Positions 6,927 to 12,362 of a stretch of DNA of 64,000 nt are shown piece after piece. The DNA is from Alphaproteobacteria bacterium (GTDB taxonomy: Bacteria > Pseudomonadota > Alphaproteobacteria > GCA-2731375): assembly GCA_965232515.1 (NCBI GenBank), contig CBDDPY010000002.1:5792001-5856000 (forward strand), in the 5' to 3' direction. Position 1 is the first letter of the stretch. Each line of letters opens with the position of its first letter. The translations under genes and the position numbers were made by a program. The notes below the pieces were generated by a model. The model had not been told where the DNA came from. It saw nothing but the letters and a program-made list of their open reading frames with translations, and searched no databases.

Positions 6927-8165
6927 ATGACCCGACCCATTGCCCTGCTATCCTTGTTACTGCTGCTGATCGCCGCCGGCACGCAAGCGGCGGAACGGCC
7001 GCTCGATGTCTTCGAGGCGGTCTGGCGCGAGGCGAAAGCCGGGATCTATCCGCAAGAGCTGGCTGCCAAGCATTTCACGGAAAGCCGCTACGACGCCCTG
7101 AAAGCGCAAGCGGCCACGGCCGAGGACCTTTACGCGCTCACGCCCGTCATCAACGATTTCCTGGCCGAGCTCGGCGTCTCGCACACCCGCTTCTATGACG
7201 ACAGCGCGTTCGCCTTCTATCTGTTCCGCTCCATGTTCACGACCCGCCGGCTCGACGATCCGGCCGTGCGCCACATCGGCGTCCAGCACGCGACGGTCGA
7301 CGGCGCCCATGTCGTGCGCGAAGTGCTGGACGGCTATCCTGCCGCCAAGGCCGGCCTGCGGCGCGGCGACGTCCTGCTGCAGGCGAACGGCCTGATCTAC
7401 GCGCCCGGACATGTCATCAATCCCGACGGCGGTACGGTCGACCTGCTGTTCCGCCGCAACGGCGCGGTCCGACGCGTCACCGTCGAGACCGTGCACGAGA
7501 ACCCGAACCGGTCGTTCCACGACGCCATGCTGAACAGCGCCACGACCTTCCGCGTCGCCGGCCGCGACGTCGGCTACGTCCATCTCTGGTCGGGCACGCA
7601 TCCGCGCATCCTGCGGTCGTTCACCGCCCTCATGCGCGACCGCTTCGCCGGCCACGACGCCATGATCCTGGACCTGCGCGGCGGCTATGGCGGCGCCTGG
7701 TACGACTATCTCGATCCCTTCTTCCCGGACCGCACGAGCTATTACCGGTTCACTGTCCTCGACCGCCGCGGCCAAAGCGAGCACCGCGCCGAGCCCCGGA
7801 CCAATCCCGACCATTTCACCGGACCGGTGGTCGTGCTGATCAACGAGGGCACGCGCTCGGGCAAGGAAGCGCTCGCCTACCAGTTCAAGACCTCCGGCCG
7901 CGCGCCGCTCATCGGCACGACCACCCGCGGCGCTTTCCTCGCCGGCCGCGCCATCTTCACCGACCCGGCCAAGCCCTACTTCCTGTTCCTCGCCGTCGCC
8001 GAGCCGCGCTTCGACGGCAACCGCCTGGAAGGCCGCGGCGTCGACCCCGACATCGCCGTCGCCTATCCCCTCGACCGCAGTCCCGCCACCGACCCGCAAC
8101 TCGCGGCCGCGCTCGCCGAAATCGAAAGGATGATGCAGGCCGATGGTCCGCCGTCACGCGACTAG
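6927..8165 (+). CDS. Secreted S41-family peptidase with PDZ domain
   Basis: Signal peptide, SHT motif, PAAKAGLRRGD PDZ, ILDLRGGYGG, INEGTRSGKE catalytic Ser region, LEGRGVDPD. Confidence 0.88.
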   Translation: MTRPIALLSLLLLLIAAGTQAAERPLDVFEAVWREAKAGIYPQELAAKHFTESRYDALKAQAATAEDLYALTPVINDFLAELGVSHTRFYDDSAFAFYLFRSMFTTRRLDDPAVRHIGVQHATVDGAHVVREVLDGYPAAKAGLRRGDVLLQANGLIYAPGHVINPDGGTVDLLFRRNGAVRRVTVETVHENPNRSFHDAMLNSATTFRVAGRDVGYVHLWSGTHPRILRSFTALMRDRFAGHDAMILDLRGGYGGAWYDYLDPFFPDRTSYYRFTVLDRRGQSEHRAEPRTNPDHFTGPVVVLINEGTRSGKEALAYQFKTSGRAPLIGTTTRGAFLAGRAIFTDPAKPYFLFLAVAEPRFDGNRLEGRGVDPDIAVAYPLDRSPATDPQLAAALAEIERMMQADGPPSRD

Positions 8166-8380: not shown

Positions 8381-8662
8381 ATGATGCATCGTTTCAAATC
8401 CAAGGCCGACCGCCGCGACGCCGTGCGGATCGAGCGGCCGAAGGACGGCCGGATCGTTCTCGACGACGGCGCCGCGCCCATCGACTGCCGCGTCCGCGAT
8501 ATTTCGACCACGGGCGCGCGCCTCGAATGCGAGGATGTCGCGGCCTGGCCGACGGAACTGGTGCTGCTGGACAGCGCCGGCAACCGGATCGACTGCGAGG
8601 TCGTCTGGACCTCCGGCACCGAGATCGGCGTCCGCTTCAAAACCCCGCGCCCGCTGTTTTGA
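8381..8662 (+). CDS. Single-domain PilZ protein (c-di-GMP receptor)
   Basis: RxxxR (RRDAVR) and DxSxxG (DISTTG) motifs, C-terminal VVW...IGVRF. Confidence 0.88.
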   Translation: MMHRFKSKADRRDAVRIERPKDGRIVLDDGAAPIDCRVRDISTTGARLECEDVAAWPTELVLLDSAGNRIDCEVVWTSGTEIGVRFKTPRPLF

Positions 8663-8759
8663 CCACAAAGACGCAAAGACACGAAGAAGCGAAGGGTTGT
8701 TAGGCGCTGCGCGCCAACCGGTCCTCTTTGGTTCTTTGTGTCTTCGCGTCTTTGCGGTT
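8662..8759. repeat. Long inverted repeat between convergent genes (CACAAAGACGCAAAGAC type)
   Basis: accacaaagacgcaaagacacgaag ... ctttgtgtcttcgcgtctttgcggtt are near-perfect reverse complements with an internal ~9-bp periodicity. Confidence 0.75.
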
Positions 8760-10660
8760 CAAATCCCTCTGTTCGATTTCGCCCTCACCGTACGCACTGC
8801 GTAGCGTCGCCCGAATACCAGCAGGCCGCCGAGACTGACCAGCGCCAGGCCCAGGCCGCCCGGCTCCGGCACGGCGGCAAGCCGCGGCGTCAGCGTCGGC
8901 AACGTCGCCTGCGCCGGCACGTCCAGGATGAAGGCGGCGCTGCAATCGCCTGGTCCCCCTGGACCGGGGAAGCAGGAGCCATTGGTCGAGGCCTGCAGCC
9001 CATTGAAGGCGATGGTGACGGTGTCGCCGAGGTCGGGCGGCAGGGCTTCGACGGCGAAAAACAAGAGCGGCGTCAGGCTCAGCGCGTCGGCCCCGAGCGT
9101 GCCGGCGAACCGGAACGCCTGCGCCGTCGCGTCGGAAATGGCGATGTCGCCGAATTCGACGGCGAACGCCACCAGATCGCTGTCGTTCAGAACGGCGCCC
9201 GCGGCGAAGTTGGCGTCGTCGAAGCTGAGGAAACCGCTGACCGGGTCGCCCGCGTCGAGCCCGGCGGTGACGCAATCCGTGACGCAGGCGGCGCTCAAGT
9301 CATAGGTGATGACGCCAGCTCTTGCCGGTGCCGCAACGCCGGCCGCCGCCAGGAACGCGAACGCGGCGGCCAGGGGCGCGGCGAGGGAGGCTCCGCGCCT
9401 CCGGCCGCCGGCCGACGGCGTCACCGGTTGCCGTCGGCGGCGGGCGGTGAACAGGCCGAACAGGGCCGCGCCCAACAACGCCAGCCCGCCCGGCTCGGGC
9501 ACGTCGACAATGCGCGGCAGCAACGGTCCCAGGCGGCCGCGGGCCTGATCGCCAAGCTCGGCGTCGCCGCATCGGTCACCGATGCAGGACGCGTTGGTCG
9601 AGGCGATGACGCTGCCGACCAGGTTGGCGAAAAAGAAGTCGCCGCTATCGGGCGCGATCGCATCGAACAGGGCGATCGCGATGAGGGACAGCGCCAGCGT
9701 GTCGGGGTTGTCCAGCTTTGCGTTGAATATCACGGCGTTTGCCGTCGAGGCATCGATCGTGACGCTGCCGAACTCGACGGCGAAATCGACGAGGGCGTCC
9801 TGGTCAACGAAGGCGTCCACCAGAAAGGCGGCGGCGTCGAGGGCGAAGAAGCCGCTGCCCTTGTCGCCGACGTCGAGGCCGACGAGGTCGCAGTCGAGCT
9901 CGCAGGTGATGTCGAAATCGTAAGCGATGACGCCGGCCTGCGCCGGCGCCGAGACACCGCCCGCCGTCAGCAGGGCGAGCGCCGCGGCCAGGGGCGCCCC
10001 GAGGAGAAACAGGCGCCCCTGGCCGGCCGCCGGCGCGGCGGCCGACCTCCGCCGGCGCAGGACGGCTAGCCCGATCAGGGCCACGCTCATCAGTCCGAGC
10101 CCACCCGGCGCCGGAACGGCGGCATGCGACGGCGCCTCGATGGAACTCGGCCTTAGGTTGACGCTCGGCATCTTCGCATTGGCAGGGCTGCTGCCCGGGT
10201 CGACCACGATGCAATCGCTGTCGGCGCAGGCGCCGTCGATCGACGCGAAAACCCTGCCGAGCCGAAGCGTGATCAATTCGCCCTGATCGGGACCGAGCGC
10301 TTCCGCCGCGACGAATTCAGCGAAGTCGATCGTCAGCGCATCGTTCCTCAGTTCGCCCTGAAAGAACAGTCCGACAGCCGTCGTGTTGTCGAGGCTGATG
10401 TCGCCGAAGTCGATGGCGAAGGCCGTGACATCGGCGGTGCCTAGGATCGCGCCGGGCGCGAAGTTGGCGTCGTCGAAGGTGATGAAACCGTCGCCGATGG
10501 GATCGCCGAGGTCGAGACCGAATTCGGCGCAATTGAGCCGACAGTCGGCCGTGATGTCATAGGTGATCGTGCCGGCTTGCGCCGTTGTCGCGTCGCTGGC
10601 GACGACCAGCAGGACGGCGGTCGCGAACCCAGCGACGAGGAAATGCTTGCGTAGGGGCAT
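8759..10660 (-). CDS. Triple PEP-CTERM polyprotein-like protein: 3 x [signal peptide - Cys-paired domain - PEP-CTERM]
   Basis: ATG after a CAGGAG RBS; VPAPGG/VPEPGG/VPEPGG + TM + basic cluster occurs three times; AQA|G, AQA|G and ARA|G signal-peptidase-like sites each precede G(T/V)I(T/A)YD. Confidence 0.88.
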   Translation of the reverse strand: MPLRKHFLVAGFATAVLLVVASDATTAQAGTITYDITADCRLNCAEFGLDLGDPIGDGFITFDDANFAPGAILGTADVTAFAIDFGDISLDNTTAVGLFFQGELRNDALTIDFAEFVAAEALGPDQGELITLRLGRVFASIDGACADSDCIVVDPGSSPANAKMPSVNLRPSSIEAPSHAAVPAPGGLGLMSVALIGLAVLRRRRSAAAPAAGQGRLFLLGAPLAAALALLTAGGVSAPAQAGVIAYDFDITCELDCDLVGLDVGDKGSGFFALDAAAFLVDAFVDQDALVDFAVEFGSVTIDASTANAVIFNAKLDNPDTLALSLIAIALFDAIAPDSGDFFFANLVGSVIASTNASCIGDRCGDAELGDQARGRLGPLLPRIVDVPEPGGLALLGAALFGLFTARRRRQPVTPSAGGRRRGASLAAPLAAAFAFLAAAGVAAPARAGVITYDLSAACVTDCVTAGLDAGDPVSGFLSFDDANFAAGAVLNDSDLVAFAVEFGDIAISDATAQAFRFAGTLGADALSLTPLLFFAVEALPPDLGDTVTIAFNGLQASTNGSCFPGPGGPGDCSAAFILDVPAQATLPTLTPRLAAVPEPGGLGLALVSLGGLLVFGRRYAVRTVRAKSNRGI

Positions 10661-10724
10661 AGTCTGACTCCTGAACAGAACGTTCGTCCCCCACAGCGAA
10701 CATATATCATTCATGTCGGACGTT

Positions 10725-10829
10725 CGTTCAGTTTGTCAAACGATTTTTTGAGTCATTGCTGTTCGAGAATGTTCTATGAAACGAACGATTGAAAAATAAA
10801 TCATTCAAAATCGTTTGACAAACCGAACG
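10725..10829. promoter_or_regulatory. Symmetric divergent promoter/operator region
   Basis: 23-bp inverted repeat with 1 mismatch (10725-10747 vs 10807-10829), each copy holding an outward-facing TTGACA; three 18-bp YGTTY-N8-RAACG sites. Confidence 0.7.
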
Positions 10830-10894
10830 ATTGATCCTTAATTATGCCGGTCGCACCGCATGAAGGGATTTTTGCGGAAAGGAGACATCGGCAC

Positions 10895-11500
10895 ATGCAA
10901 ACCCAGAGCCTTTGCCTGCCGCCGCGCGGTTCGGCGATCCGGCGGGCCGTGCCGGCCGATTGCGGCGAGCTGGACCGGCTGGCGCTGATGGCGTTCCGGC
11001 GCGCGGCCCCGGCCCACTACACGGCCGAACAGACCGAGCGTATTCTGCGCTTCCTGATCAAGATCGACCGCGGGCTGATCACCACCGGCCGGCTGTTCGC
11101 GCTGCAGGACGACGGCCGTCTTGTCGGCTGCGCCGGCTGGTCCAGCGGCGGCCCGCTGATCCGTGGCGCCGCCGACGCGGTCGGGAGCTGGGCCGGCGCC
11201 GGCCGGAACGGCGACGGTCCTGGGCCCGACGGTCGGCCCGGGGCCGAGATCCGCTGCGTTTATGTGCACCCGGACCAACAGCGCCGCGGCGTCGCCAAGC
11301 GCCTGCTGGTGACCGCCGAGCGCGACGCGGCCGCGGCCGGACACCGGCGGTTCTCGCTGATCGCGACGCTGCCGTCCGTGCCCTTCTACCTCAGCCGTGG
11401 CTACCAGGCCGTTCAGCCCCTCGACATTCCCATGCCCGAGGGCGCGCCCGTGCAGGGCCTCGCTATGGCAAAGGACGTCGCCGCCCGCTGCGCCCGCTGA
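10895..11500 (+). CDS. GNAT family N-acetyltransferase
   Basis: IRRAVPAD, LVGCAGWS, IRCVYVHPDQQRRGVAKRLL (motif A), ATLPSVPFYLSRGY; AAAGGAG RBS. Confidence 0.9.
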   Translation: MQTQSLCLPPRGSAIRRAVPADCGELDRLALMAFRRAAPAHYTAEQTERILRFLIKIDRGLITTGRLFALQDDGRLVGCAGWSSGGPLIRGAADAVGSWAGAGRNGDGPGPDGRPGAEIRCVYVHPDQQRRGVAKRLLVTAERDAAAAGHRRFSLIATLPSVPFYLSRGYQAVQPLDIPMPEGAPVQGLAMAKDVAARCAR

Positions 11501-11738: not shown

Positions 11739-12362
11739 CTAAAACTCCGTCGTCACGCCCGCGCGCGACGGGCCGGCCGTCACGTCCTCGGCCGTCGCGC
11801 CGGCGCCGTCGGCCGTCGGCGACGGATAGGCCGCCACCAGGATCGCTTCCGAATCGTCGTCCAGGCCCTCGTAGCTGTGCGGCAGGTTGCCCTTCATGCG
11901 CAGGAAGTCGCCGGGGCCCAGCTCGACCTCCTGGCCGGCCGGGCCGATGCGCCAGCGGCCCTTGGTGACGATCAGATGCTCGACGGTGCCGGGCGCGTGC
12001 GGCGTCGACTTGTGCACGCCGCGCTGGATCGTGCCCTGCAGAAATTCGAGCTGCACGCCGGGCAGCTGCGACCAGCTGATCGAGCGATAGCGGATCGGGT
12101 CGGCGTCGACCCAGCTGCCCTGCGGCGCCCGCACTACCACCACCGTCGCCTCGTCCGAGCTCACCAGGTCGCTCAGCCGGACGCGCAACGCGTTCGCCAG
12201 CGCCCACAAGGTCTCCAGCGTCGGATTGGCGTTGCCCATCTCGATCTTCGACAGGTTGGCCTTGGCCACGCCCGACATGCGCGCCAGCTCCGACAGCGAG
12301 ATTCCCCGCCCGATGCGCGCCGATTTGATACGACTGCCGACTTCGGCTCTGATCTTTTCCAT
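11739..12362 (-). CDS. XRE-family HTH regulator with C-terminal cupin domain
   Basis: SLSELARMSGVAKANLSKIEMGNANPTLETLWALA HTH; PHAPGTVEH...LGPGDF...PHSY cupin. Confidence 0.92.
   Translation of the reverse strand: MEKIRAEVGSRIKSARIGRGISLSELARMSGVAKANLSKIEMGNANPTLETLWALANALRVRLSDLVSSDEATVVVVRAPQGSWVDADPIRYRSISWSQLPGVQLEFLQGTIQRGVHKSTPHAPGTVEHLIVTKGRWRIGPAGQEVELGPGDFLRMKGNLPHSYEGLDDDSEAILVAAYPSPTADGAGATAEDVTAGPSRAGVTTEF

Follow-up and report, generated by a model that had tools for sequence, protein, structure and literature searches.

Can a single bacterial gene encode several surface proteins, each with its own export signal and its own sorting tag, in one uninterrupted chain? This question is raised by a gene on the minus strand (8759..10660) of a 64,000-nt stretch of DNA, referred to below as the window, which comes from an alphaproteobacterium of the GTDB group GCA-2731375 (assembly GCA_965232515.1, contig CBDDPY010000002.1, positions 5,792,001 to 5,856,000). 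The encoded protein of 633 amino acids (aa) contains three consecutive precursors of the PEP-CTERM type, i.e. three successions of a signal, a body and a PEP-CTERM sorting tag. Sorting by PEP-CTERM tags and exosortases is found widely among bacteria that form biofilms or flocs. The gene is genuine and conserved, and three whole precursor copies are fused in it in frame. The wider reading, according to which these are paralogous precursors that arose by fusion of tandem genes and whose common chain would be cut into three proteins, has in our judgment about an even chance of being right.

Three complete precursor units in one reading frame

Translation of 8759..10660 (minus strand) yielded a single open reading frame (ORF) of 633 codons and a stop codon, with no stop inside it, as the first-pass annotation had stated. 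In an automatic listing of ORFs, the same frame extends upstream to an ATG at 10714, which corresponds to 651 aa. The ATG at 10660 is nevertheless the better start, because a Shine-Dalgarno sequence, AGGAG (10672-10668 when read directly along the minus strand), is placed 7 nt 5' of it and because two homologues, P0002 and P0003, both begin with MPH... at the position aligned to this codon. Since there is no stop codon on the way, a ribosome that initiates at 10660 has to translate all three units as one chain.

The chain is composed of units covering aa 1-205, 206-410 and 411-633, which are 36-46% identical in full-length alignment and in which four cysteines are invariant. The layout is the same in every unit: the hydrophobic core of a signal and an Ala-x-Ala come first, followed by a 4-Cys domain of acidic character (about 145 aa) and then by the tag elements, namely the PEP motif, the transmembrane helix and the Arg cluster. 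Unit 1 opens with the predicted N-terminal signal peptide (aa 1-29, 10574..10660), in which inspection and family alignment revealed a basic n-region and a core of 15 residues, with AQA preceding the mature start GTITYD at aa 30. It is followed by the body of unit 1 (aa 30-181, 10118..10573), a 4-Cys domain belonging to no Pfam or NCBIfam family and delimited, like the other two bodies, by profile and hidden Markov model (HMM) matches, and by internal PEP-CTERM tag 1 (aa 182-205, 10046..10117), which is made up of VPAPGG (from 10117), 15 hydrophobic residues and RRRR, and which scored 21.4 bits in a genome-wide TIGR02595 scan. Next come predicted cytoplasmic loop 1 (aa 206-215, 10016..10045), which has no acidic residue and no in-frame ATG, GTG or TTG, and, as judged by alignment, an internal signal-peptide-like segment 2 (aa 216-242, 9935..10015) with an arginine, a hydrophobic core, Pro at -4 and AQA. 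The body of unit 2 (aa 243-386, 9503..9934) starts with GVIAYD at 9934 and ends before internal tag 2 (aa 387-410, 9431..9502; VPEPGG from 9502), which reached 29.2 bits in the same scan, the highest score among the three tags. Predicted cytoplasmic loop 2 (aa 411-419, 9404..9430) includes an in-frame GTG (Val413, 9424-9422) with no Shine-Dalgarno sequence before it and leads to signal-peptide-like segment 3 (aa 420-448, 9317..9403), in which alignment revealed RRR, a hydrophobic core, Pro at -4 and ARA. The body of unit 3 (aa 449-596, 8873..9316; GVITYD at 9316), C-terminal tag 3 (aa 597-619, 8804..8872; VPEPGG from 8872, with its motif intact) and a basic 14-aa tail (aa 620-633, 8759..8803 together with the stop codon) complete the protein. 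The landmarks of all three units thus lie exactly where the first-pass annotation had placed them, and its remark that the linkers are devoid of Met holds for this gene, with the addition of the GTG in linker 2. The fraction of G and C at third codon positions (GC3) is 0.81-0.96 in all segments, including the junctions, with the sole exception of the 14-aa tail, where it is 0.64.

The completeness of the units was assessed with an HMM of 198 positions made from single-unit precursors, for which 51 of the 59 best relatives (P0004-P0062) were used; they were included if they were 170-245 aa long, had M or V as the first residue and possessed a basic pair close to the end. In the window protein (P0001), this model finds three matches (HMM positions 9-195, 8-194 and 5-193), with independent E-values (i-E) of 3e-53, 7e-45 and 5e-51, and such a three-fold match is not due to chance. 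As the matches run nearly from end to end, every unit holds the signal core, Ala-x-Ala, body, PEP motif, helix and Arg cluster. Together with the three stretches reported by PF07589 (see below), this bears out the proposal that three full secretion-and-sorting units share one frame. At the DNA level, repeats between the units reach no more than 64-83% identity; the array is therefore old and represents neither a recent duplication nor an assembly stutter.

The two internal signals have 17 of 27 positions in common, compared with 10 of 27 shared with the N-terminal signal, and hence resemble each other more than either resembles the latter, as had been noticed from the sequence alone. The loops contain 5 and 7 Arg/Lys residues and not a single Asp/Glu, while each domain holds 17-24 Asp/Glu and is net acidic. 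According to the positive-inside rule for membrane topology (PMC9360617), loops so rich in Arg/Lys and free of acidic residues are predicted to be cytoplasmic, with all three domains outside, and the in/out topology previously put forward is therefore self-consistent. Export of unit 3 by the Tat route, for which the motif RRRGASL was considered, was rejected, as the twin arginine is missing from P0002 and P0003.

The whole protein passes both curated PEP-CTERM models: PF07589 gave 25.1 bits (cut-off 20.7) in three stretches and TIGR02595 gave 29.2 bits (cut-off 16), and the motif is visible by eye in all three tags. When the tags were scored in isolation, PF07589 returned 15.5, 25.7 and 17.1 bits for tags 1, 2 and 3, respectively, and TIGR02595 returned 16.1 bits for tag 1, 22.9 bits for tag 2 and no match for tag 3. 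Accordingly, PF07589 gave the expected three matches for the intact chain, whereas tag 2 alone passes both cut-offs as an isolated segment and tag 1 just passes that of TIGR02595. It may be observed that the true C-terminal tag scores lowest, below both cut-offs, and an internal one highest; a weak terminal tag followed by a basic 14-aa tail is also kept in P0003. The tags lie 427, 222 and 14 residues from the stop, so that only tag 3 is terminal, and tags 1 and 2 lack the extreme C-terminal position by which PEP-CTERM is defined. In this genome, 38 of the 40 TIGR02595 matches are located 1-21 residues from a stop, and the remaining two are the internal tags of this gene. The same habit was described by Haft in 2006, who found the tag near the C-terminus "virtually without exception", with a median of 3 residues after it (PMC1569441).

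The gene is also supported by sequencing data. Run X1, possibly the source sample, provided a 5545-nt contig that is identical over 8600-10900 and covers the whole gene. In another sample (X3), identical pieces bridge junction 2 (between units 2 and 3), and a piece about 90% identical from another study (X4) bridges it with 45 substitutions and 0 gaps; among the differences listed for the X4 linker, those at 9420-9422 turn Val-Thr into Val-Leu and create no stop.

Relatives of the units and of the fused gene

When the three domain bodies were used as the profile in an exhaustive search, 111 representatives were retrieved at E<=0.001, 106 of which contain one matched stretch. They are small proteins, mostly of 170-245 aa, with a signal peptide at the start and, in most cases, a PEP-CTERM-like tag at the end; two matches, P0063 and P0081, were rejected on reading as repeat-driven false positives. 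P0111 combines two bodies with a single signal and a single tag, as is usual when a domain is repeated. The family is recognized by a mature start of the form x-I-x-[YF]-[DE], a C-x3-C close to the N-terminus, G-L-x-x-G-D, another pair of Cys towards the C-terminus, and the tag. All three units show these features and match the HMM with an i-E of 7e-45 or better, and Cys 49, 53, 153 and 163 are invariant or nearly so in 69 sequences. No Pfam or NCBIfam model matches the body, the domain profile had 0 matches among PDB sequences at E<=1, and a second copy of the body was not found elsewhere in its own genome; the domain is present in just 1 of 400 genomes of the same class. Single-unit members of about 170-245 aa, such as P0004, have the body, signal and tag in common with each unit here and differ in that there is one unit per gene. 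At one locus (L035, G521:C44, 666-2025), two unrelated PEP-CTERM genes stand in tandem in different frames, with about 45 nt between them, and the downstream one is a single-unit 4-Cys member, i.e. the ordinary unfused state.

The nearest named model is floc_PepA (NF033554), and specifically its C-terminal half (positions ~126-261 of 261), which resembles the 4-Cys family below threshold: P0001 scored 22.4 bits, its units 14.8 and 19.8, and the best family member 52.7, against a cut-off of 80. Sub-threshold matches of this kind, with scores of 15-53 bits, were given by 34 of the 69 family members and by units of this gene, so the window gene is not a member. PepA, likewise a small PEP-CTERM protein, binds exopolysaccharide (EPS) to cells (PMC9850573), and a similar binding role of the present gene is plausible by analogy. 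PepA differs in being a single unit and RpoN-dependent, whereas no convincing sigma-54 site lies upstream of the window gene.

Only two close homologues of the fused gene are known. P0002 (424 aa) comprises two units orthologous to units 2 and 3 of the window protein, preceded by its own N-terminal Met signal, while P0003 (617 aa) has three units and is 49% identical to the window protein. All five internal junctions of P0001, P0002 and P0003 are in frame and keep the PEP motif, the R cluster and the AxA. Thus, the number of units varies among relatives, as had been suspected, and the fusion is not unique to this genome with separate genes everywhere else. In a tree of the 8 units and 17 single-unit relatives (top matches P0004-P0021, with truncated P0012 dropped), all eight units form one clade (94/99), which implies that the array grew within one lineage. 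Its composition is U1-U2-U3 in the window gene, U2-U3 in P0002 and U2-U2'-U3 in P0003; units have apparently been gained, lost or shuffled with the junctions preserved.

When P0001 is compared with P0003, identity amounts to 71-83% in the tags and 66-77% in the internal signals, as against 30-51% in the domains. The internal signals constitute a class of their own, having 15-21 of 27 positions in common with each other and 6-14 of 27 with N-terminal signals. Ala occupies -3 and -1 in 8/8 signals, and Pro is found at -4 in 5/5 internal ones. The notion of an expandable cassette fits this conserved and distinct class of junctions. The linkers of P0003 (aa ~208 and ~413) each contain a Met at the place where a signal peptide would begin (PAMGQGR... 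and PDMPPAGG...), and these residues may be relics of old start codons or working internal starts.

Sorting machinery and proposed processing

The genome (7.39 Mb, 4 contigs) encodes one exosortase, as the first-pass annotation had anticipated. The enzyme matches PF09721 with 229 bits and the XrtA model TIGR03109 with 315 bits (cut-off 208), and it is fused to EpsI. Its gene, flanked by those for a TIGR03087 glycosyltransferase and a TIGR03108 amidotransferase, belongs to a cluster (G000:C2:6541877-6585839) that also holds PrsR and two PrsT-like tetratricopeptide repeat (TPR) genes and is separated from the window by about 770 kb of the same contig; a third PrsT-like gene was noted at C2:1091464. 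Signal peptidase I is encoded in the genome as well.

Given these elements, we infer from the sequence the following course of processing. The N-terminal signal would start Sec export of domain 1, and the PEP-CTERM helix would then stop transfer, leaving the Arg-rich loop in the cytoplasm. The next signal-like helix would re-enter the membrane and start export of the following domain, after which the cycle would repeat. Signal peptidase I would cleave after each internal AxA and exosortase A (XrtA) at each PEP tag, so as to yield three separate cell-surface or EPS-associated proteins, and two small hairpins composed of tag, loop and signal would be left in the inner membrane and then degraded. 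The array itself may have originated when tandem genes were fused once in frame, and cassettes consisting of an internal signal, a domain and a tag may since have been gained, lost and shuffled. Because each signal would act on its own, such a fusion would be nearly silent, and this may explain why it arises and persists.

Comparison with known membrane-threaded and internally tagged proteins

Chains cut into several proteins at the membrane are familiar from other systems. Flavivirus polyproteins are threaded as one chain through the membrane of the endoplasmic reticulum, and signal peptidase cuts them at internal signals. The FbcH cytochrome b-c1 precursor of Bradyrhizobium is likewise one membrane-threaded chain cut after an internal signal into separate proteins. 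Unlike the window gene, both are made of dissimilar parts, have no exosortase-type tags and no repeated homologous cassette. Canonical exosortase A substrates, in turn, have the N-terminal signal, the variable body, and the PEP motif with transmembrane helix and Arg cluster, and the system that serves them (XrtA-EpsI, TIGR03087, TIGR03108, PrsR and PrsT) is present in the same genome as the window gene; what sets the latter apart are the two tags at 427 and 222 residues from the stop, each followed by a new signal peptide-like segment.

The closest precedents come from sorting tags in the middle of a chain. HVO_0405 of Haloferax volcanii is a fusion of two once-separate genes with a tripartite sorting tag mid-chain, and this central tag is cleaved in vivo in an ArtA-dependent manner (PMC7157517; also cited in PMC11980579). 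ArtA and exosortases belong to one family, as indicated by the TIGR04178 match of the exosortase from the genome under study. HVO_0405 resembles the present case in carrying a mid-chain tag in a fused gene, which there is cut by an exosortase relative (PMC7157517). It differs in being archaeal, in having a PGF-CTERM tag, in being a Tat substrate, and in having one junction between unlike parts, and the excerpt of its description mentions neither repeated units nor a signal peptide after the tag (PMC7157517). Guo, Haft and Wall (2025) regarded C-terminal tags as functional mid-protein and proposed the same for MXAN_5598 of Myxococcus xanthus, which has an internal MYXO-CTERM in a two-part fusion (PMC11980579). 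In that case, the tag is handled by myxosortase, a CPBP protease, there is a single junction, the downstream part is an outer-membrane beta-barrel/OmpA region, and the processing is a proposal (PMC11980579).

The claim that no example had been described therefore has to be narrowed: in full-text literature, with subscription journals and supplements outside its scope, no paper on repeated internal PEP-CTERM plus signal junctions was found, whereas single-junction precedents exist in HVO_0405 (PMC7157517) and MXAN_5598 (PMC11980579). What is known are single two-part fusions with a mid-chain tag; what differs here, as far as the sequence tells, is that like units are repeated and that a predicted signal peptide follows each internal tag. 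An in-frame succession of tag, basic loop and signal-like helix bearing a peptidase site, shared with the homologues, is found at two junctions in this gene and at five across the three proteins.

Alternative explanations

Several observations weigh against a chain cut into three proteins, and they are considered here along with the explanations that they would favor. The product might be a stable polytopic inner-membrane protein, in which the internal helices serve as uncleaved anchors or the exosortase ignores tags that are not terminal, leaving one chain with three periplasmic domains and two helical hairpins; in a milder form, processing would be partial, for example with signal peptidase cutting and exosortase using only some of the tags. 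The hydrophobic cores of the internal signals, as read from the sequence, are about 20-21 residues long compared with 15 in the N-terminal signal, and longer cores favor uncleaved anchors (PMC2120157; PMC9360617). Furthermore, exosortases are not known to cut internal tags, tags 1 and 3 are below the PF07589 cut-off, tag 3 has no TIGR02595 match and tag 1 is marginal in its scores. The Ala residues at -3 and -1 and the Pro at -4, however, are dispensable in an anchor but are kept at all five internal junctions; PEP motifs are kept at every internal tag, and tag 2 outscores the other two. Each junction reproduces the cleavable elements of single-unit precursors in full, and an archaeosortase does cut a central tag (PMC7157517). 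We consider the polytopic protein unlikely, though it deserves to be taken seriously. An improbable alternative is a neutral or decaying fusion, in which the stops between tandem genes have disappeared, the chain is still functional in part only and the layout has no selected role. Such an origin is suggested by the rarity of the layout, with P0001, P0002 and P0003 being singletons in a collection of 15 billion proteins, and by the prevalence of single units among ordinary relatives, with the usual separate tandem PEP-CTERM genes seen in G521 and a Met retained in P0003 where each old start would lie. A similar remark is found in Haft 2006, where rare atypically placed PEP-CTERMs were judged possibly non-functional (PMC1569441). 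The layout is rare in searches for further examples as well: the tag-signal layout was not found in 40 relatives or in 400 genomes of the same class; a junction query of 400 genomes of the same phylum gave tag-level matches only, with no internal tag in the four of 20 loci inspected (L015, L016, L028 and L033), which do not include the stop-free G300 and G326 matches; and neither longer nor shorter forms were found by a word-index search (8000 candidates, crowded by low-complexity words). Related loci that would carry the DNA of the relatives were likewise not found in the genome contigs and metagenome contigs searched. A decaying gene would hardly be reconciled, though, with a frame, tags and signals kept across proteins that are just 49% identical, with junctions more conserved than domains, with all four Cys retained in every unit, or with a GC3 that stays high up to the 14-aa tail.

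The remaining explanations do away with the long chain, either in the cell or in the data. Separate units could be produced from internal translation starts or internal transcripts, with the long chain as a minor product, and the in-frame GTG in linker 2 as well as the Met in both linkers of P0003 speak for this possibility. Linker 1 of the window gene, on the other hand, offers no ATG, GTG or TTG, and the GTG of linker 2 lacks a Shine-Dalgarno sequence; judged from these codons, internal initiation is unlikely at linker 1 and conceivable at linker 2, and we regard this explanation as very improbable overall. RNA-library contigs of X5 (with another organism label), which are 95-99% identical to 8682-8973, 9103-9339, 10170-10337 and 10618-10897, are ambiguous with regard to transcription in view of possible DNA carry-over. 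As to the possible loss of two stop codons through an error of sequencing or assembly, junction 1 (between units 1 and 2) is intact but covered by X1 alone, which may be the source itself; the expected absence of stops and frameshifts was seen independently for junction 2, which is bridged without gaps in X3 and X4. Stronger evidence than these reads is provided by independently assembled homologues, which carry homologous in-frame versions of both junctions, and an artefact is already close to refuted. Our preference thus remains with the conserved gene of three fused precursors whose chain would be cut into three proteins.

Surroundings of the gene and its putative regulation

Upstream of the gene, in an AT-rich region, there is a 24-nt inverted repeat on the minus strand, whose arms (10807-10830 upstream and 10724..10747 downstream) are 96% complementary and 59 nt apart. 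The upstream arm overlaps a sigma-70-like promoter, TTGTCA-17-TATTTT (10821-10793). Each arm holds the palindrome GTTTGTCAAAC, and the exact 12-mer CGTTTGACAAAC occurs in only two places of the 7.39-Mb genome, namely both repeat arms, which are probably a dedicated operator pair. A gene for an XRE-cupin regulator is located nearby (11739-12362, minus strand). A sigma-54 promoter was considered and is unsupported: the pattern is rarer in the window than expected by chance, and the nearest similar sequence, AGGCTCTGGGTTTGCA (10896-10911, minus strand), has 2 mismatches to the consensus and lies 236 nt upstream of the start, inside the neighboring GNAT ORF.

Downstream, a near-perfect 96-nt hairpin of -56 kcal/mol (8663..8758) fills the space between the stop codon of the fused gene and a convergent PilZ gene. 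It is probably a terminator. On contig C2, its arms are found again in about four other places, and the hairpin may be an element similar to repetitive extragenic palindromes or miniature inverted-repeat transposable elements (REP/MITE-like) that might terminate transcription in both directions. Two plus-strand genes converge on the 3' end of the fused gene, one for a secreted S41 (tail-specific, PDZ) peptidase (6927-8165) and the other for the small PilZ protein, which binds cyclic di-GMP (8381-8662).

Implications

To our knowledge, the biochemistry of the PEP-CTERM/exosortase system has barely been tested. With 633 aa and three similar units of about 15 kDa, the gene is a naturally occurring, compact test case for two questions, namely whether an exosortase acts on a tag that is not C-terminal and whether signal peptidase I releases downstream domains at internal signals. 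It suits direct experiment because it is small, its units are alike and it has relatives with different unit numbers. A more general proposal, to which we would assign somewhat less than an even chance, is that exosortase-containing bacteria can make true secreted polyproteins, in which a modular cassette of internal signal peptide, domain and PEP-CTERM tag passes through the inner membrane again and again and is cut by signal peptidase I and exosortase A into n surface proteins, the number of cassettes changing by recombination between junctions. If so, the amount and diversity of matrix-binding surface proteins made from one promoter could be varied through the number of cassettes. If both questions were answered in the affirmative, gene callers and sorting predictors that assume one signal and one tag per protein would miscount surface proteins, and tandem genes for such proteins could fuse and split freely at little cost.

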